From an uncultured archaeon (GTDB lineage: Archaea; Thermoplasmatota; Thermoplasmata; Thermoplasmatales; Thermoplasmataceae), in assembly GCA_000965745.1 (NCBI GenBank), contig CP009479.1, forward strand, positions 896,001-960,000: a DNA stretch of 64,000 nt. The letters run 5' to 3'. The position numbers were made by a program, and so were the translations under genes. Of this stretch, positions 16,914 through 26,426 are shown piece after piece. Each line of letters starts with the position of its first letter. Position 1 is the first letter of the stretch. Under the pieces are notes generated by a model that worked only from the letters and a program-made list of their open reading frames with translations, was not told the origin of the DNA and did not search any database.

Positions 16914-19601
16914 TCAACCCTGATACACGGATGATACGCCATTCACCTTTGTAACCTCGAATGATGCATCGGCAGCTGAGGTCAACTCAGTGTGGTGTGT
17001 GATCATTATCATCTGCTGAACCATGTTTTCATCCTTCAGGGAGTACTGTATGATCTCCTTCAGGTTGTTCCTCCTGTCCTCGTCAAGGAAATTTGTGGGC
17101 TCATCCATAATAACAGTGCTGACCCTTCCTGTCAGATATTTGGCGATGGCGAGTCGCACCGCGATAGCCAAGGAGATTCTCTCCCCGCCACTTAAGGAAT
17201 CAAGTGGCTCTTCAACGCCATTGTTTATCACTTTTATGTCAAAATTCTCGTCTATCCTGACATCGTCAAACTCGAAGTTGAACGACGAAAGGTAATTCCT
17301 TGTCATGTTGTTAATTGAAACGGACGAATCCTTTCTTATGAGGGCCTGAATCCCGTTTCTTTCAAAGGCACTTCTCAGTTTCTCGAGTTTTGCGGAAGCA
17401 GCCTTTATCTTATCCAGTTTCAGTTTGTCCTTCTCCAGGGATGACAATTCGAGTTCTAGCTTTTCAATTGTTGACCTGAAGGTCTTCATCCTTTCAGAAT
17501 ATGCGGTTACATTCTGCCTTATCCCATCCAGCTCTTTCTTCTGCCTGTTGTACAGTTCAACTGCCCTCTCAAGTTCCTGCCTGACATCTCCGAGGGATAT
17601 GATTTCATTACTCTTCTTCTCAAGGTCAGAATCGATCTCGGCCAATGCCCTCCTGTCGTTTTCGAGCTCATTCAGGACCCTGTTGTACTCTGCTTCTGCA
17701 TTCCTTATCCTCTCGTATTTTTCCACCAGGGCCTCAAGCCGGTTCCGGTCCTCATCAGAGGGCTCCATCCCTATGCTGATTACCAGGCTCTCCAGCAACT
17801 CGCTCTTTTCCCTCTCCTCATTTTCGTACCTGGCCAGTTTTTCCCGCAATGTCTCAATGGGGATTCTGCTCACTGCATATGTTATGGAATTGAATTCATT
17901 CTCCTGTTGCTTAAGGGCCTCCTTTTCTTTCATAGCCTCTCCGAGTTTCCCCTCCACGTGTGAAAGTTCTGCAAATTTCGACTTCAACTCATCCATTCTC
18001 TCCTCCTTTTCGGCTATGGAGTCCTTCAGCCTTGAGAGTTCGTCCCTTGCAAGCATGAATCTCTCTATGCCAGGTCTTCTCAGCCGGGCAAGTTCCTCCT
18101 CTCTCTTTCTGTAGGCATTATTGAGGCCGGAAACTTCTGCGCCGGACTCGGCTATTTCCTTCAGAAACTCTTCTTCTCTTGCCTGGTAGGCAGAGTGAAT
18201 CTCCCCGAGGTGAAAATCATCGAGGTCACTTCCGCAAACAGGGCATTTCCTGTTGTCACCAAGCGTCTCCTTATTCTTCCTGAGTTCTGTGAGCTGTCTA
18301 TTGATTCCCCCGACACGCTCTTTCAGGGCATTTCTCTGCCCTTCTATTTCCCTGAGCCCCTTCTCTAGCTCTCCAATTGACCGGGCAACACTGTTCCTGT
18401 CAAGGCTCATCAGGTCGGCAAATTCAGGGGAAGAAAGGGTTCCGGAAAGTTCCATGGCTTTCCTCTTCTCCGCTTTGACTTCTTCATCGGCAGAGTCTTT
18501 CAGCGCTTTATAGCTGTGTAGCGACTTTGCCTTCTCCTCAAGGTCTTTAACAAGGGATTCAACCTCCCTGTACCTTCTGTGGCTTTCTGCAAGTGCCCCT
18601 AGCTTCTTCTTCTCTGCCTCATAGTCACTTATGGCAGTTCTTACATTTTCAAGAGAGACTTCGAGAGTCCTGAACTCGCTCTTGAGGTTGAAAAATCTGG
18701 TAACTTCCGACTTCCTGGCGAACAACGTTTCCTTCTCTATCCTCTCCTTTTCAGCTGCAGAGAACGAGATACCCTTGATGAGCTGCTGGCTCTTCCCGAT
18801 ATTATTCTTGACAGCTTCCGCCTTGGCCTTCAGTTCGTCAATCCTGGTTCTTACCGCATCAAAACCTGCCTTTTTCTGCATTGCGTCGTCTCTTCTTATT
18901 TCGAGCTCCTGCATTGCCTCGTGCGCCTTCTTCTCTCTCCCGGCTTCTTCTGATAAGAGAACTTCAGCCTTTTCTAACTCCTCTTTAGCTTCAGACCTGT
19001 CACCGGATATCCTGTCAAGCCTGTCCTGAATGTTTGAAAAGCGCGCTTCTTCCAAGCGCAGTGCATCCCTTATGCTCTTTATCTTCTGCGCATTCTCCGA
19101 CAGCACATCAATTCCAATGATTTTGCTGAACAGTTTCTCCCTGTTGGCAGGCGTTTCAGAAATGAGCGCGTCCATCTCGCCCTGCCTGACAAAAACAGAA
19201 TTCAGGAATATGTCCTTCGGGATCCTTAGCCCGTCCTTTATCTCCTTGTTTACTCCCTCGGCAGTCTCTGCTATCATCACATTGTCAAGCTTGATCCAGG
19301 AATTTCTTCCGGTTATGCTGCTCTTCCCAAGGGTAAGGCTCCTGAACAGCTCGTAATATCTGTCGTTAAGCCTGAAGCCGATGGTGACTGCACACTCCCT
19401 TGCGCCGCTCCTTATGAGCTCGGCAATCTTGTCGCCGCGCTTCTCGCCGAAAAGGGCGAACCTGATTGCATCAACAATGCTGGATTTTCCCGCACCATTT
19501 TTTCCATAAATGATGTTGATGCCATTCTCGAAGCGAATCAGCGTGTCAGAATGAGACAGGAAATTGTTAAGCTGGATATAGTCAATTATCATAGTTACCA
19601 A
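16914..19601 (-). CDS. rad50: DNA double-strand break repair ATPase Rad50
   Basis: GKNGAGKS, long coiled coil, zinc hook CPVC, LSGGE and MDEPT. Confidence 0.95.
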   Translation of the reverse strand: MVTMIIDYIQLNNFLSHSDTLIRFENGINIIYGKNGAGKSSIVDAIRFALFGEKRGDKIAELIRSGARECAVTIGFRLNDRYYELFRSLTLGKSSITGRNSWIKLDNVMIAETAEGVNKEIKDGLRIPKDIFLNSVFVRQGEMDALISETPANREKLFSKIIGIDVLSENAQKIKSIRDALRLEEARFSNIQDRLDRISGDRSEAKEELEKAEVLLSEEAGREKKAHEAMQELEIRRDDAMQKKAGFDAVRTRIDELKAKAEAVKNNIGKSQQLIKGISFSAAEKERIEKETLFARKSEVTRFFNLKSEFRTLEVSLENVRTAISDYEAEKKKLGALAESHRRYREVESLVKDLEEKAKSLHSYKALKDSADEEVKAEKRKAMELSGTLSSPEFADLMSLDRNSVARSIGELEKGLREIEGQRNALKERVGGINRQLTELRKNKETLGDNRKCPVCGSDLDDFHLGEIHSAYQAREEEFLKEIAESGAEVSGLNNAYRKREEELARLRRPGIERFMLARDELSRLKDSIAEKEERMDELKSKFAELSHVEGKLGEAMKEKEALKQQENEFNSITYAVSRIPIETLREKLARYENEEREKSELLESLVISIGMEPSDEDRNRLEALVEKYERIRNAEAEYNRVLNELENDRRALAEIDSDLEKKSNEIISLGDVRQELERAVELYNRQKKELDGIRQNVTAYSERMKTFRSTIEKLELELSSLEKDKLKLDKIKAASAKLEKLRSAFERNGIQALIRKDSSVSINNMTRNYLSSFNFEFDDVRIDENFDIKVINNGVEEPLDSLSGGERISLAIAVRLAIAKYLTGRVSTVIMDEPTNFLDEDRRNNLKEIIQYSLKDENMVQQMIMITHHTELTSAADASFEVTKVNGVSSVYQG

Positions 19602-20745
19602 CTTCGAAATCTATTCCAAGTTTCTCGAGTATTACCCGCCGTGCCTTTTCGAATTCATCATCCCTTAGTGTCTCATAGACCTCATTCGCAAGGGAGGACA
19701 TGCTATCATCACCAAAATACGCTTTGAAGTAATCGATAAGGCTGTTCATGTTGGGTTCTTCAACCGACACCTCTTTTTGAGGGTCGAACCTCACTCTTCT
19801 GAAGAAATACTGGTCTGATAGCTTCTTGAGGGAATTCTTGACCTCTTCCCTGTCGGACTCACCAGTTATCGTGAGAAGCACCATTGGCTTCTTTTCCCCG
19901 AACCTGTCAGCATACCTGCTGTGCATTTTCTCGAGTTCATCAATATAGTTTTCCTGCCTCGCGGTGACTTCGACCTGAAACCTTGTGCTCTTGAGCCTGA
20001 CTCTTTCAACTGATACCTCCCCTCCCTTTACTTCAACGAGATTGACGCCCTTGCCCCCTTTCAGGAACCTTGCGATCTCGCTGGAACTGGTCATGTCGGT
20101 GGACCCTGCGTATGAGAATACTGGATATTCCTTGTCCCTCACCACATGATCGTGGATATGCCCGAATGCAAGGTACGAGAAGGTTTTCGGGAGATCGTCA
20201 TACCTGGCCTCACATGCTTCAGGGTGCAGGTAAGGTGAAACAGCCTGGTGTGAGAGGAGTACTGAGGATCTATAATCTGTTGCCATGGATTCTGCTTTCC
20301 TGTACTCTTCAACAAGCAGATCCTTCCTGAGCCCTTTCATATTTGAAATTCCGTAAAGAAGCATGCTTTCACCGTCGTAGCTGAGCTCAACATTTCTCCG
20401 GGCATCCGGAGCCCCGTCATCGAGCAGCTTAACACCGAGAAAATCAAATATCTTGGAAGCCGGGTCATCCCTTCTTTTAGGCCTGTCGTGGTCGCCCATT
20501 ATTATGTACATGCCCCTGTTTGCATCAGATATCTGCCTGGCGAAATCCTTGAACTTGAGCAGTGCGTGGTTTCCAGGATTCCATGTGTCAAACAGGTCTC
20601 CAGTGTGGATGAAGAAGTCTACATGCTCCGAAAGACCAATATTTATGGCTTCCTGGAAAGCCTCGTAGAAATCCTCTTCCCTGAAAGATTCTCCATATTC
20701 CCTGTTTCCAAGGTGTGTGTCCGAGAAGTGAAGGAACTTGACCAT
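19582..20745 (-). CDS. mre11: DNA repair nuclease Mre11
   Basis: SDTHLG, GDLFD, GDHD and FGHIH phosphoesterase motifs; directly upstream of rad50. Confidence 0.93.
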   Translation of the reverse strand: MVKFLHFSDTHLGNREYGESFREEDFYEAFQEAINIGLSEHVDFFIHTGDLFDTWNPGNHALLKFKDFARQISDANRGMYIIMGDHDRPKRRDDPASKIFDFLGVKLLDDGAPDARRNVELSYDGESMLLYGISNMKGLRKDLLVEEYRKAESMATDYRSSVLLSHQAVSPYLHPEACEARYDDLPKTFSYLAFGHIHDHVVRDKEYPVFSYAGSTDMTSSSEIARFLKGGKGVNLVEVKGGEVSVERVRLKSTRFQVEVTARQENYIDELEKMHSRYADRFGEKKPMVLLTITGESDREEVKNSLKKLSDQYFFRRVRFDPQKEVSVEEPNMNSLIDYFKAYFGDDSMSSLANEVYETLRDDEFEKARRVILEKLGIDFEVGNYDN

Positions 20746-22284
20746 TTAATCACCCAGAAGGTTCCTGATCCTTTTGTTGTCCTCAGCTGGATCGGTCTTC
20801 TTTCTTCGGTCCTCCCTGGCCTCACGGAGGAGCGAAACCAGATCAACATCCCCTCCTCCCTCTCGCGTCTTTCTTTCCCTTATCTTTGTCACGACAGGAA
20901 GTTTCACGAATTCCCCAACAAGGACTGCTTCACCGACATTAAGCGATGGAAGGTCGTCTATGACGGCCTGGCTTATGCTTTCTCCACTCTCGAGGACAGC
21001 ATTCTGGTCAAGGGGATTTGTTATCCTGAGAATTATTTCGGAATTGCACTGGCTCAGCACATCCTGGTCAATCTTTCCCGGCCTCTGTGTGATAACCACA
21101 AGGAAAATGCCGAATTTTCTGCCTTCTGAAGCTATCTTCTTGATCATGGCTGATATCTGGGTGTTCTGCTTCGGAGGGACAAAGTTGTGTGCCTCCTCAA
21201 TAAACACAAAAACTGGGTACTTGTAGTCCGATGTTGCCTTTATTTCGTAAATCTCGTTCAGGACCCGGAACGAGAAATAGTTTGCAAGGAACTGGTCCAT
21301 CCCTGAGAGGTCGAGAATGCTCATCTGTCCCGGTGCCAGATACTCTCCTATGCCAGTGGTCCTTTCCCCGAAAATTGACTTTATCTTGGACAGGAACCTG
21401 AGCCTTCCTGCAATCTTTCTCTGGTCTTCCTGCTGCAGCTTGTCCGCACTTTTTATGAAGTCATCAAGGTCCTTTCTTCCGGACATCTGCTTCATCATCT
21501 CATCAACAATTCTGTTAAGGTTCGTCCATGACTCTTTTATTCCCATTATTCCCGAGACATCTTCAGTTTCCATGTCCTGGAACCTCAATGAAAAGTCTTC
21601 GGCAAAGAAGCTTGAGGGGGAATATCTGCCAGTGCTAAGGGGAGTCCTGAATACCTTCACAGAATCCGCGAACTCCTTATCTTCCGAGCCACGCTGCATC
21701 AGCACATAGTCGGCGTGGGGGTCAAGAACTATTATCGTTGCACCCTTCTTCAGGAGCTCTTCCATCAGGACTCCTGCAGTATGGCTTTTTCCCGCGCCTG
21801 TCTGTGCCACAATTGCCAGATGCCTTCTCAGCCCGTTCACGTTTACAGCCACTCTGACATCGGATCTGTCGGCAAGGTACCCTATATGGAGGGATTCCTG
21901 CTCCCCATAACCGAAAATTCCTTCCAGAAGGCCGGTTTCCGCCCTGTACACTTCGGTTCCTGGCTTGATAAGTTCCCTGGTCAGATTCAGCCCATCACCA
22001 TTCAAGGTTCCGAGGGTTCTAGTATAGCATATTATGTTATTGTCGCCTATCTCGCTCGTCACGTATTTCGAGACACTCTCGAAATCGAGGCCCGTATTCA
22101 GCAGCTCGCTCCGGGAGACGATCCTCTCAACTCTTCCTATTATCCTGTCTTTCCCGCTGTTTATGTAAACATACTCCCACTTCTTGACTTCAGCATCGGG
22201 GTTCAGCACAAACATGAACGAGTCTGACGAGTTGTCACCTACTGTAAAACCCAGGTTAGATTCTGATTCTGGCACGTCTTTCAC
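20746..22284 (-). CDS. herA: Bipolar helicase HerA
   Basis: HAS barrel, RHLAIVAQTGAGKS, DPHADY, IEEAH, EGRKFG and TQRP. Confidence 0.93.
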   Translation of the reverse strand: MKDVPESESNLGFTVGDNSSDSFMFVLNPDAEVKKWEYVYINSGKDRIIGRVERIVSRSELLNTGLDFESVSKYVTSEIGDNNIICYTRTLGTLNGDGLNLTRELIKPGTEVYRAETGLLEGIFGYGEQESLHIGYLADRSDVRVAVNVNGLRRHLAIVAQTGAGKSHTAGVLMEELLKKGATIIVLDPHADYVLMQRGSEDKEFADSVKVFRTPLSTGRYSPSSFFAEDFSLRFQDMETEDVSGIMGIKESWTNLNRIVDEMMKQMSGRKDLDDFIKSADKLQQEDQRKIAGRLRFLSKIKSIFGERTTGIGEYLAPGQMSILDLSGMDQFLANYFSFRVLNEIYEIKATSDYKYPVFVFIEEAHNFVPPKQNTQISAMIKKIASEGRKFGIFLVVITQRPGKIDQDVLSQCNSEIILRITNPLDQNAVLESGESISQAVIDDLPSLNVGEAVLVGEFVKLPVVTKIRERKTREGGGDVDLVSLLREAREDRRKKTDPAEDNKRIRNLLGD

Positions 22285-23350
22285 CTCTTGTCTCGTAAAA
22301 CGGGACTCCTACAACACTTTCGAATGTTCTCATGTATAACCCTTCAATTTCTTTCTGCCTGAACTTGACGTCCCTGTCCACGTCAGCAAGCCAGATATTG
22401 TGGGTTTTCAGGCCACCATATCCCCAGAAGATCATCTCCATAATATCGCCGTCCAGGTCGTATGCTGCAGTCCTGGCATCAGCGGAATCCTGTGCTTCAG
22501 GCAGTACAAGGTCAACCTTGATGGGCAGATCATTATGATCAGGCAGGGCATGTAGGGTTACTACATTAAGCCTTGACTGGCCAAGCTCATTCCTGTCAGC
22601 CGGGAATGACACCTTCAGAGGCACGGTGTAGCCACTTGCTTTGGCGAACGATTTGATAAGAAGATGATCGGTTCTCCTGTACTCACGCTCGCTTTTGATC
22701 ATATCTTCGGTGTGCACACTCCTGTCCAGGTTATCAAGCAGGTAATTCCTGAAAAGCAAACTTTCCGAGCTTTTTGCTACGAATGCCATCGGTATCCCGT
22801 TCTCTATGCAGTACCGGAGCAGTGCGTAGAGTTCCCTGAAGTAAATTTCGATGAAGTTTTCATAGTTTTCAGCATCTATCCTGTTTCTCTTATGCCTGAG
22901 CCTTCCAGCCAGAGATCCATCCATGAGGACATAATCGGGCTTCTCCTCCTTCAGGAGATTGAGTGTTGCAACATGTTCTGTGTGCTCCATCAGAAGTATG
23001 GTGAAATTTCTTATTTCGTCCCTGTTCACGTCCATTACCTCGCAGATGAAATCTTTGGCAGTTCTGTTCTTTGTCTTGGCATAAGCCCTTATGAGGATCA
23101 GCTTCTTTCCGTTGTACAGTTCACGGACAAATTCGCTGCTGTCTGTGGCAGAGATCGAACCCGGATTGAACCTGCTGTCTGCTTTCTCTATGAAATTCTT
23201 GCCGAAAGCTTCATCATACAGGCGCCTGAGAGGAGAATCGCTGTCTATCAGCAATGACTCCCTTACCCTCTCCAGATTATCGTTAAGAAACTTAAGGTAG
23301 TCCTCATAGGTATCATTCATAATCAAACACTTGATGGCTGATGTTCCCAT
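22256..23350 (-). CDS. nurA: NurA nuclease (likely start near 23320)
   Basis: ATDSS, MDGSL and VAKSS acidic motifs; position in the herA-mre11-rad50 operon. Confidence 0.88.
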   Translation of the reverse strand: MGTSAIKCLIMNDTYEDYLKFLNDNLERVRESLLIDSDSPLRRLYDEAFGKNFIEKADSRFNPGSISATDSSEFVRELYNGKKLILIRAYAKTKNRTAKDFICEVMDVNRDEIRNFTILLMEHTEHVATLNLLKEEKPDYVLMDGSLAGRLRHKRNRIDAENYENFIEIYFRELYALLRYCIENGIPMAFVAKSSESLLFRNYLLDNLDRSVHTEDMIKSEREYRRTDHLLIKSFAKASGYTVPLKVSFPADRNELGQSRLNVVTLHALPDHNDLPIKVDLVLPEAQDSADARTAAYDLDGDIMEMIFWGYGGLKTHNIWLADVDRDVKFRQKEIEGLYMRTFESVVGVPFYETRGERRARIRI

Positions 23351-23394: not shown

Positions 23395-24480
23395 TCAGGA
23401 AACGGATAATGGCACTATTGTGAAGCTGAGGATGAACATTACAAGCGCAGCTACACCAAGAAGGATATCCCGTGACGGAATGCCTGAATAGTCATCAAGG
23501 GCAGGGGGATGATTGAGGCCCATGAACACGACGAACATGGCAAGGAACCACCACCCGTTGTACCTGAAGCCTATGAGGAAGAGGAAAGCGACAAATATGT
23601 AGTCAACAACTGAAGCCCTTTTCCCCAGAAGCCCCCTGACAACATGCCCGCCGTCAAGCTGTCCCACAGGAATCAGATTCATCGCTGTTGCGAATATGCC
23701 AACCCAAACAGAAAACACCATTGGAAATACCGGTCCCTGAAATTCTGTTGTGAGTCCAAGGAACTGATAGAGCAATGGAAAGTTGATCACGAACGGCATG
23801 TAATTGCCCGTGGCAGGGAAGAAGCCCTGCACGTACTCCGCGACAAACAGGAGTGGAAGTGCTGTCAGGAACCCGGCAATAGGGCCTGCTGCACCGATCT
23901 CCAACATTACTTTCTTGTTTGGAATCGGATCACGCAGGGAAATGAAGGCTCCAAATGTTCCTATCCCCACCGGGAACGGGATGAAAAAGGGGAGGGACGC
24001 TTTCACCTTGTGCCTTCTGGCAACTATATAATGCCCGGTTTCATGCACTCCGAGTATCAGCATGAGTGGGGCCGAAAAGAACACGAACCCGTATATGTAT
24101 TTGAGAGCGCCTCCCCATGCACCGGGCTGGACAAAATTTGCAGCATATATTGACCCCACGTATATGGTTGAAGCCAGAGTTAGGACAAGCATCACGAGAT
24201 TAACGTAATTGCTCCTGTAGGTAGTGGCTGGCCTCCTTGACACCTCTATGAAATTTTCAACGTCCTTGACAAGAAAAGGGACATATCCTTCAGGCACAAG
24301 CTCTGTCCTCAGTTTGTCGAACTCATTTGTAAGATCTGGATTGTCGCTCAGGAAAAAGAAGAATCGGATACTCAGAGGGTTGACATCAGTCTCGTATACA
24401 TTGATGTAGGATCTTACTGTCCTGACCACCTTTTCAAGGTCTTCGCTCTGAATCCTAACAGTCCTCGAGGTATTCTCCAT
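23395..24480 (-). CDS. Site-2 (M50) intramembrane metalloprotease; true start ATG 24480
   Basis: HETGH, GTFGAFI, AGPIAG and NLIPVGQLDGGH; GGTGA RBS just before ATG 24480. The longer ORF start overlaps the ncRNA. Confidence 0.9.
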   Translation of the reverse strand: MENTSRTVRIQSEDLEKVVRTVRSYINVYETDVNPLSIRFFFFLSDNPDLTNEFDKLRTELVPEGYVPFLVKDVENFIEVSRRPATTYRSNYVNLVMLVLTLASTIYVGSIYAANFVQPGAWGGALKYIYGFVFFSAPLMLILGVHETGHYIVARRHKVKASLPFFIPFPVGIGTFGAFISLRDPIPNKKVMLEIGAAGPIAGFLTALPLLFVAEYVQGFFPATGNYMPFVINFPLLYQFLGLTTEFQGPVFPMVFSVWVGIFATAMNLIPVGQLDGGHVVRGLLGKRASVVDYIFVAFLFLIGFRYNGWWFLAMFVVFMGLNHPPALDDYSGIPSRDILLGVAALVMFILSFTIVPLSVS

Positions 24481-24494
24481 AAGGTTCACCGTTA

Positions 24495-24692
24495 AACTGT
24501 TCCCCAGGTTAACGAAGTTATTCACGTTTCGTAACTCTCTGACCCACTGGGGATTTTGTTGCCAGCCGCTGATCGAACCTACATAGCATGAACTTATCAT
24601 ACGCTCAGTCCGAGGCCCATGGCGTGGCAAATTATTGTCTCATGTCGTCATACATGTTCATCAGATCACATGTACTATTTTTTGAGACAACC
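24495..24692 (-). ncRNA. Three-hairpin box H/ACA pseudouridylation guide RNA
   Basis: Three stem-pocket-stem hairpins, each with a GA...UGA K-loop. Each is followed immediately by ATA (24635-24633), ACA (24559-24557) or ACA (24500-24498). TATA box upstream. Pocket 3 is complementary to 23S H69. Confidence 0.8.
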
Positions 24693-24710: not shown

Positions 24711-24726
24711 CTTAAAGTTTTTATCT
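24711..24726 (-). promoter_or_regulatory. BRE/TATA promoter for the H/ACA RNA
   Basis: Minus strand GATAAAAAC-TTTAAG, with TTTAAG at 24716-24711, about 20-25 nt before hairpin 1. Confidence 0.6.
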
Positions 24727-24856: not shown

Positions 24857-25840
24857 TTAATCTCTCCAGACTTTCCTTACAGAAGCTATTCTGGGAGATT
24901 CCTCGAGGCTCATCCTGGTCCTGTACGTGATCCTGCCCCTCGTGAACAGGATCTCGACTGAACCACCTATGTTCTCATTTGCCATGTATTCGATGAGTTC
25001 CTTCATCCCGTTTATGTTCTTGTCTCCCATTGCAGTAATGACATCACCGGGTTGGAGCCCAGCATAATAGGCCGGGCTGTCCTGGGAGACCCTGGCAACA
25101 AGAACTCCGCTGTCATTGCTCAGGTTGTATGCGCAGGCAACACTGGAGTTGAGCTCCATTCCAGATATTCCCAGCCAGGGCCTGATGACTCTGCCGTTCT
25201 CCAGAATATCATTCATGATCCTCTTCACTGTGTTGACGGGTATTGCGAAACCCACTCCCTGTGCAAACGGGATCATCGCGGTGTTTATTCCTATCACTTT
25301 GCCTGAAAGGTTTGCAAGAGGCCCTCCACTGTTGCCAGGGTTGATCGCTGCATCAGTCTGGATCAGCCCTTCAAAAATGAAGTCCGCCCATGGGAGGGGC
25401 CTTCCCACTGCACTTACAAGCCCAAGCGATACTGTGGGGTCTCCAGGTAGCCCCAGTGCATTTCCTATTGCAAGCGCCATTTGCCCCGGCCTGACCTTGT
25501 CTGAATCGGCGAGATCTGCAACAGGAAGGCCATGCCCCTCGATCCCGACCAAAGCTATATCTGTGGCAGGATCTGTCCCAAGAACCTCTCCAGGCCTGCT
25601 CTCCCCATTTGGAAGTACTACTTCCACATTTTCAGCCCCCTCAAGCACATGGTTATTGGTGACGATGTGCCCCTCTTGGTCAACAATAATGCCGGATGCT
25701 GAACCAATTGAAGGGGACAGACCGTACATGAAGTTGCGCGAAACCCTTGTAGTGTTGATTGTGACAACACTGTTCCTCAATCTCTCCACAGACTTCTCTA
25801 TCTCACTTTGAAATTTCTCCAGCTCGGACATTAGTTTCAC
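24857..25840 (-). CDS. HtrA/DegP-family serine protease with one PDZ domain
   Basis: TNNHV, TDIA, QTDAAINPGNSGGPL, and PDZ motifs WLGI and GDVI. Confidence 0.93.
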   Translation of the reverse strand: MKLMSELEKFQSEIEKSVERLRNSVVTINTTRVSRNFMYGLSPSIGSASGIIVDQEGHIVTNNHVLEGAENVEVVLPNGESRPGEVLGTDPATDIALVGIEGHGLPVADLADSDKVRPGQMALAIGNALGLPGDPTVSLGLVSAVGRPLPWADFIFEGLIQTDAAINPGNSGGPLANLSGKVIGINTAMIPFAQGVGFAIPVNTVKRIMNDILENGRVIRPWLGISGMELNSSVACAYNLSNDSGVLVARVSQDSPAYYAGLQPGDVITAMGDKNINGMKELIEYMANENIGGSVEILFTRGRITYRTRMSLEESPRIASVRKVWRD

Positions 25841-25885: not shown

Positions 25886-26311
25886 TTGCACTCAGCTCCT
25901 TCGTCAGAAATAACGGACAAATTAATATATGAGGCAGTATTTGAAAGACTATCTGGTGATTGTAACATGTCAAGGTCTGCTACACTTGACCTGGTAAGGT
26001 TGGAAAAAAAGAGCTCCGAGCAGAAGATCCTTCATGTCTTCAGGACTTGGACAATTCCTGTTGTAAGAGCACTCGGAGAGAAATCACCATCCAGGTTCAA
26101 TGAACTCAAGAGAAAAATAAGGGGAGTAAGTTCAACAAGCCTTTCTGAAAGGCTTTCGAGCCTTGAAAAAGAGGGAATTCTGCAAAGAGTCGTTGTGCCA
26201 GATAACCCTCCAAGTGTTGAATATTCTCTTACTGCCAAGGGCATGGAACTCCACACAATACTCGTTGAACTGGGAGACTGGGCTGAAAAGTGGAACGAAA
26301 ACATCAGGTGA
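25886..26311 (+). CDS. HxlR family transcriptional regulator (likely start 25967)
   Basis: RFNELK, LSERL..LE and PPSVEYSLT.KG motifs. Confidence 0.9.
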   Translation: MHSAPSSEITDKLIYEAVFERLSGDCNMSRSATLDLVRLEKKSSEQKILHVFRTWTIPVVRALGEKSPSRFNELKRKIRGVSSTSLSERLSSLEKEGILQRVVVPDNPPSVEYSLTAKGMELHTILVELGDWAEKWNENIR

Positions 26312-26353: not shown

Positions 26354-26426
26354 GGGCTTGTAGTCTAGCGGTCATGACGTCGCTCTCACACAGCGGAGGT
26401 CGCCGGTTCAAATCCGGCCAGGCCCA
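26354..26426 (+). tRNA. tRNA-Val(CAC)
   Basis: Acceptor stem GGGCTTG/CAGGCCC-A; anticodon arm TCGCT-CT CAC AC-AGCGG; T arm GCCGG-TTCAAAT-CCGGC. No encoded CCA and no intron. Confidence 0.96.

Follow-up and report, generated by a model that had tools for sequence, protein, structure and literature searches.

The closest described relatives of the RNA analysed here are HgcG, Pab40, Pf7, Pho40 and Afu4 (RF00064; PMC2377435, PMC4652768). The 23S rRNA targets of Pab40 and Afu4 are U2496 for the first hairpin (HP1) and U2586 for the second (HP2); for motif 2 of Afu4, a position equivalent to E. coli 2555 had been proposed at first (PMC2377435). Productive guides of Pyrococcus have a defined geometry, with an upper stem of 10 layers and an ANA box at 14 nt (PMC4652768), and weak 5′ guides are tolerated among them (PMC2377435). 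In Haloferax volcanii, sR-h45 targets Psi1940 and Psi1942, which correspond to E. coli 1915 and 1917 through their equivalents in H. marismortui (PMC2584109).

Pseudouridines at another 23S position, E. coli 2511, are made by different routes. For Psi2603 of P. abyssi and Psi2607 of T. kodakarensis no guide was found, and Cbf5-Gar1 makes them without RNA (PMC2377435, PMC6138745). Psi2607 is moreover Nop10-independent in vivo, as it survives deletion of nop10 (PMC6138745). Among in vivo cases in which Cbf5 modifies rRNA without a guide, they are the principal one. In yeast, Psi2880 disappears on deletion of snR34 together with two C/D guides; by a constant offset of 369 from flanking positions, it is equivalent to E. 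coli 2511 (PMC11121408).

The window, a stretch of 64,000 nucleotides, is part of a complete 2.23-Mb Thermoplasmataceae chromosome. At 24690-24498 its minus strand almost certainly holds an unannotated gene for a three-hairpin archaeal box H/ACA sRNA (24498..24690, roughly 193 nt and a few more at the ends), the ends of which were placed from the distance to the TATA box and from the last ACA. All motifs quoted in the initial annotation occur on the minus strand at their positions: HP1 at 24690-24636 followed by ATA, HP2 at 24630-24559 followed by ACA, and HP3 at 24553-24501 followed by ACA at 24500-24498. A TATA-like TTTAAG (24716-24711, minus strand) precedes the first stem of HP1 by about 21-26 nt and, with an A-rich BRE, makes up a predicted promoter (24711..24722, minus strand). 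An A/T-rich block is present at the matching distance in all 21 aligned homologues. Further upstream of the RNA lie a gene for an HtrA-type protease with a PDZ domain (24857-25840, minus strand), a divergent gene for an HxlR-type regulator (25886-26311, plus strand) and a tRNA gene (26354-26426, plus strand).

The minus strand folds better than its shuffles (z -2.96), 3 out of 200 being equally good. In 20 of 24 family genomes the element is found just upstream of the M50/S2P protease gene (nhmmer E 4e-51 to 1e-12). Covariation across these upstream regions, by which the initial annotation had suggested the RNA be checked, is present: two-sided changes compensate 37 of the 51 base pairs in 21 sequences, a level reached by none of 500 shuffles. 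In the same alignment, from which the scored structure was partly derived, 91.5% of the cells pair, compared to about 40% in slid controls. All seven helices of the three hairpins are 81-97% paired with compensatory changes, and the stems vary with compensation while the loop sequences are fixed. With a model of the RNA, R1, it was found in 129 of 151 Thermoplasmatales genomes, nearly always as a single copy, and with a broader one, R2, in 115 of 151 genomes of the phylum; the E-values of the homemade models R1-R3 are rough.

An Rfam scan of the window returned a tRNA only, with no match at the sRNA locus at gathering or E-value thresholds. Likewise, a search of the whole source genome with RF00064, which finds the Thermococcus genes at about 200 bits, gave no match at this locus even at E 10. 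The two groups are linked by a bridging model, R3, that was built only from Thermoplasmatota copies outside the Thermoplasmatales, without Thermoplasmatales or Thermococcus sequences. R3 matches the source window (E 2e-13) and, at E 8e-21 to 1e-15, five HgcG genes of Thermococcus that Rfam verifies, and it does not match two other H/ACA-like loci of Thermococcus. Its training set is not fully independent, having been collected with R2, a model that included both groups. The matches of R2 itself to Thermococcus HgcG are circular and were left out of the evidence. R1 alone ranks the HgcG genes top when filters are off (E 3e-6) and, with filters on, gives no match in whole genomes of Thermococcus and Hadarchaeum. 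Since R3 recognizes both the Thermococcus HgcG genes and the source window, the sequence comparison suggests that the sRNA is, in all likelihood, an orthologue of HgcG/Pab40/Pf7/Afu4 that is too diverged for RF00064. In other Thermoplasmatota homologues HP1 reads U2496, and the AACCC guide of HP2 fits U2586 and also, in genomes with U2551, the A-loop. Pockets 1 and 2 of the present RNA are off the ancestral U2496 and U2586, which speaks for an orthologue that was retargeted, not for a separate family. Thermococcus has a further H/ACA-like locus, with two hairpins (L156, L157), which scores below the HgcG cut-off and is probably a known Pab35/Pab105-type guide. The suggestion in the initial annotation that the gene may be undescribed in its lineage is consistent with the Rfam result and with an incomplete literature search, which found no report of any H/ACA RNA in Thermoplasmatales.

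Matches to Cbf5, Nop10 and L7Ae in the source genome are above cut-off; Gar1 has a weak match (E 8e-5) below it. Taken together, conservation, covariation, complementarity of the three pockets to rRNA, these protein genes and the homology to HgcG/Pab40 bear out the three-hairpin box H/ACA guide that was initially proposed, and the RNA is very probably an HgcG-orthologous pseudouridylation guide with three targets in 23S rRNA. The analysis rests on sequence, covariation structure, homology, complementarity, guide-target covariation and the presence of protein genes, from which we infer transcription, protein binding, modification and the exact target bases of the following model. The sRNA would be transcribed from its own TATA promoter, with probable read-through into S2P. 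L7Ae would bind the K-loop or K-turn of each hairpin, and Cbf5, with Nop10 and Gar1, the lower stem and the ANA box. The internal loop would pair with pre-23S rRNA on both sides of a uridine that Cbf5 would then isomerise. HP3 would guide U1915 in helix 69, its ancestral target. HP2 would guide U2554 in the A-loop, its ancestral target U2586 having been lost (C in these ribosomes), and HP1, ancestrally directed at U2496, would now guide U2511 in helix 90.

The initial annotation named no targets. They were sought in the 16S and 23S rRNA of the genome itself, and the best site of each pocket is the one named here. In domain V, the P. abyssi number equals the own number plus 66 and the E. coli number plus 92, so that the own number minus 26 gives that of E. 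coli. The 23S and 16S genes of the source genome (G000:C1:355487-358406 and 367220-368689) are about 9 kb apart, 23S first, and do not form one standard operon. In the literature searched, no Psi map of Thermoplasmatales rRNA was found. Reportedly, Muller et al. corrected many targets that had been purely computed.

HP3 (24498..24553, minus strand) consists of a lower stem (24553-24547 with 24507-24501), the 5′ guide GGGTCA (24545-24540), an upper stem with K-loop (GA 24530-24529 and GA 24523-24522), the 3′ guide GTTA (24513-24510) and the box ACA (24500-24498), 13 nt from the top of the pocket. The GA ... UGA of the K-loop is invariant, 10-11 layers above the pocket, and both guides are invariant in 59 of 59 sequences. 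They pair by 4+6 bp round U1951 of the own 23S rRNA, the predicted target, which is E. coli U1915 in the loop of helix 69; 3 of 300 shuffled guides reach this score, and the 3′ duplex is weak (-0.6 kcal/mol). The pocket sequence is the same as that of Thermococcus HgcG motif 3. By its sequence, HP3 thus appears, with good confidence, to address U1915 and/or U1917. Its box spacing of 13 nt is found in 53 of the 59 family members, compared to 14 nt in Thermoplasma, the sister families and Thermococcus. This is one nucleotide less than Pyrococcus guides require, among which a 13-nt spacing was non-productive (PMC2377435).

HP2 (24555..24630, minus strand) had been drawn with a K-loop, which is not the motif conserved in this hairpin. 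Alignment and fold energy (-21.1 kcal/mol, versus -12.2 for the K-loop form) instead indicate a K-turn (A24605, bulge 24585-24583, G24582 and T24581, the latter being A in other genera) with a long outer stem (24604-24586). The lower stem (24630-24621 with 24567-24559) and the upper stem (24613-24607 with 24579-24573) enclose the 5′ guide ATGGGC (24620-24615) and the 3′ guide CAGC (24571-24568). The K-turn reads TGA in 53 of 59 family members and TGT or TGC in all four genomes of the source genus. There the conserved A is replaced by U or C, only one G-A pair is certain, and the box is shifted by one base. It can be read as ACA (24559-24557) or AAA (24557-24555), at a distance of 12-14 nt depending on box and register. 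The guides pair by 4+6 bp round the A-loop, leaving the three bases U2554-U2555-C2556 unpaired, a score equalled by 1 of 300 shuffled guides. The predicted target is U2580 of the own rRNA, equivalent to E. coli U2554, or alternatively U2555. ATGGGC and TCAG are invariant (59/59), as an apparent ATGGGA variant proved to be a pattern-matching artefact from the lower stem of HP1. Family f6 keeps the HP2 pocket with A at 2555 (G029, G033), which favours U2554 over U2555. In tests in Haloferax, the 5′-most unpaired U was the modified one (PMC7075261). Judged from the pairing, HP2 is likely to address U2554/2555 across the family, and we hold the same for the source genus with somewhat less assurance. 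The ancestral target U2586 is C in Thermoplasmatales 23S and U in most other genomes compared.

HP1 (24633..24690, minus strand) is built of a lower stem (24689-24683 with 24642-24636), a 5′ guide (24682-24676), a 10-layer upper stem that ends in a K-loop (24675-24666 with 24659-24650), the 3′ guide GACGAC(A) (24649-24643) and the box ATA (24635-24633). The spacing, given as 15 nt in the initial annotation, is really 14 nt since the pair G24675-T24650, which is G-U in 17 and G-C in 3 of 21 sequences, belongs to the upper stem. The initial register, with this G and T inside the pocket, yields no convincing target. The GA ... UGA of the K-loop is invariant and lies exactly 10 layers above the pocket; an ANA box stands 14 nt from the pocket top in 51 of 58 cases.

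The predicted target of HP1 is U2537 of the own 23S rRNA, or E. coli U2511. Its guides form 7 bp immediately 5′ and 1 bp 3′ of this base. In Thermoplasmataceae the canonical register leaves the 5′ guide with 1 bp, and 3 bp are reached when five bases of the substrate are looped out; the score is equalled by 16 of 300 shuffled guides here, against 4 of 300 for HP1 of two sister families. The predicted target is settled by relatives. Families f3 and f5 have a GGAA 5′ guide, by which the pocket reaches 6+4 bp (10 bp) and leaves the canonical two bases unpaired, and 56 of 59 family members retain the 3′ guide GACGAC. In addition, all of the 21 aligned sequences have the A at the top of the 5′ guide, the partner of U2513. 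A GUCGUC in 16S rRNA was dropped as a candidate, as A comes after the site. HP1 therefore has, in the pairing of its guides, a probable address at U2511 in helix 90 rather than at the ancestral U2496. The U located 15 nt after the HgcG HP1 target (Psi2588) in Thermococcus 23S is the same base, so that U2511 equals U2603 of P. abyssi and U2607 of T. kodakarensis. The incomplete literature searched held no report of an archaeal guide for U2511. We incline, by a small degree, to the combined view that U2511 of 23S has in HP1 its first archaeal RNA guide and that the HP2 pocket has also switched, to the A-loop, at least two times independently, on the change of its original target U2586 to C.

HP1 and HP2 vary further among the relatives. 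In one genus (G007, L021:2735-2790) the HP1 pocket is wholly different; scored on the rRNA of the source genome, not of G007, its best site is 16S U496/497 (6+3 bp), and a further retargeting is possible. Family f6 (L096, L097, L115-L118, L120, L121) has apparently lost HP1, leaving a two-hairpin version. In family f8 (L238, L282-L285), inspection by eye fits the HP1 pockets to neither U2496 nor U2511, and the A-loop is the only fit for HP2. Family f29 (L272, L278) has an HP1 of the U2511 type and an HP2 with an enlarged upper part.

Guides and rRNA change together. In Thermoplasmatales, with C2551 in 23S, the 3′ guide of HP2 has CAG; in 26 other Thermoplasmatota, with U2551, it has CAA. The AACCC guide of HP2 is lost in both lineages in which U2586 became C, Thermoplasmatales and, independently, family f29. 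Every HP1 of the GACGAC type with a readable 23S faces a matching GUCGUC, and genomes with GUCGGC never carry the GACGAC guide. In one genome (G154), a U2496-type HP1 carries a compensatory substitution facing an rRNA base that has changed. These counts represent only a few evolutionary events. The sRNA family offers a worked case of guide pockets following rRNA changes.

Could the RNA be an H/ACA RNA of which HP1 does not direct U2511? Psi2511 would then be made by Cbf5-Gar1 alone, the route known from Thermococcus, and all that the conserved GACGAC strand did would be to tether or chaperone helix 89/90 of pre-23S rRNA or to guide another RNA. The near absence of the HP1 5′ guide in Thermoplasmataceae and families f14, f29 and f32, the Nop10-independence of Psi2607 in T. 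kodakarensis (PMC6138745) and the occurrence of GUCGUC, then A, in 16S would agree with this. We consider it unlikely, as the geometry of HP1 is exactly canonical for U2511, with the 10-layer upper stem and the ANA box at 14 nt in 51 of 58, two sister families have the full GGAA 5′ guide, and the A that pairs with U2513 never varies. Somewhat less doubtful, yet still disfavoured, is that one or two hairpins are degenerate in the source genus or family, with HP2 inactive through its altered K-turn and box, or HP3 acting, through its 13-nt spacing, on U1917 or on U1915 and U1917. HP2 has its K-turn A replaced in four out of four genomes of the genus, and in Pab40 one change in the K-turn is enough to shift the specificity of this hairpin (PMC2377435); as to HP3, both helix-69 pseudouridines come from one hairpin in Haloferax sR-h45 (PMC7075261). 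Against degeneracy, the guide strands of HP2 and HP3 are invariant in these genomes while the stems still covary, which indicates selection on pairing.

Other explanations start from the adjacent M50 (site-2) protease gene (23395..24480, minus strand; Pfam PF02163), of which the start ATG at 24480 lies 18 nt past the last ACA of the sRNA. Ahead of it stands a Shine-Dalgarno-like GGTGA (24486..24490, minus strand), a putative ribosome-binding signal with purine-rich sites at the same place in several relatives. As there is no room for a second promoter and the neighbourhood is kept in most of the family, the RNA might be a cis-regulatory 5′ leader of the S2P mRNA through which L7Ae binding controls translation. 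This is very improbable: S2P is distant from the RNA in genera g3 and g19 as well as in every other family examined, so that the RNA is a gene in its own right, its conserved loop bases match rRNA, and it is homologous to a proven trans-acting guide. A side effect of the sRNA on S2P expression may nevertheless occur. The S2P gene is a neighbour outside the RNA and probably co-transcribed with it. Directly past S2P on the same strand (16914-23350) follow nurA (Pfam NurA) and three further ORFs that resemble herA, mre11 and rad50 by translation, and one long transcript, sRNA-S2P-nurA-herA-mre11-rad50, may start at the promoter of the sRNA. That the hairpins are incidental to a translated N-terminal extension of the protease (24630-24481) is hardly credible. 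The frame is open in the source genome, giving 50 extra codons from TTG 24630 (24481..24630, minus strand) and an open frame of 414 aa, versus 359-378 aa in those family relatives that match over the full length. The proteins of relatives, however, align from residue 1 at ATG 24480, and stops interrupt the extension frame in 6 of the 6 relatives translated, three of them congeners, including one that is 91% identical in protein. Moreover, HP1 lies outside the extension and is equally conserved. The extension is therefore spurious and not part of the S2P gene, as the initial annotation had supposed, and the finding of the sRNA corrects the protein start of S2P.

With the guide RNA as the preferred reading, a missing core RNA gene is supplied for a whole order of acid-loving archaea, cultured Thermoplasma species included, and three pseudouridines are predicted at functional centres of ribosomes whose modifications are apparently unmapped. 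No new mechanism or RNA class is involved. The RNA belongs to the known HgcG family, and it is the retargeting, especially to the guide-free site U2511, that goes beyond routine annotation. If HP1 does guide U2511, Cbf5 would make Psi2511 guide-free in Thermococcales and guided in Thermoplasmatales (in eukaryotes with snR34), the guided route having arisen by retargeting one pocket of an ancient three-hairpin RNA. A natural guide for U2511 would make guided and unguided routes comparable on one substrate.

Compared to the known systems, the sRNA is most like HgcG/Pab40/Pf7/Pho40/Afu4 (RF00064; PMC2377435, PMC4652768), with three hairpins that, aligned with Thermococcus HgcG genes, have the same order and build: HP1 with a K-loop, HP2 with a K-turn and long outer stem, and HP3 with the helix-69 pocket GGGUYA / GUUA. 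The two differ in that the pocket of HP1 fits U2511 and not U2496 (Pab Psi2588), that of HP2 fits the A-loop rather than U2586 (Pab 2678) or Pab 1932, and HP3 has a K-loop and 13-nt spacing, whereas HgcG has a K-turn and outer stem there. The sRNA is also shorter (about 195 nt versus about 220 nt) and lower in G+C. Haloferax sR-h45, likened here by description, has two hairpins, a long pseudoknotted spacer and no equivalent of HP1. Its 5′ hairpin targets Psi2605, which we take to be U2586, the ancestral HP2 target. The 23S of Thermoplasmatales lacks that uridine. The 3′ hairpin of sR-h45 acts on the helix-69 loop (PMC7075261), which HP3 is predicted to address. With the guide-free Psi2603/Psi2607 of Cbf5-Gar1 (PMC2377435, PMC6138745), HP1 shares the uridine (E. 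coli 2511) and the enzyme, whereas here an H/ACA hairpin of canonical geometry appears to address it. Finally, yeast snR34 (Psi2826, Psi2880; PMC11121408) resembles HP1 in being an RNA guide for the same uridine, E. coli 2511; it is a eukaryotic two-hairpin snoRNA without K-turn, and its likeness to HP1 is assumed to be convergence.
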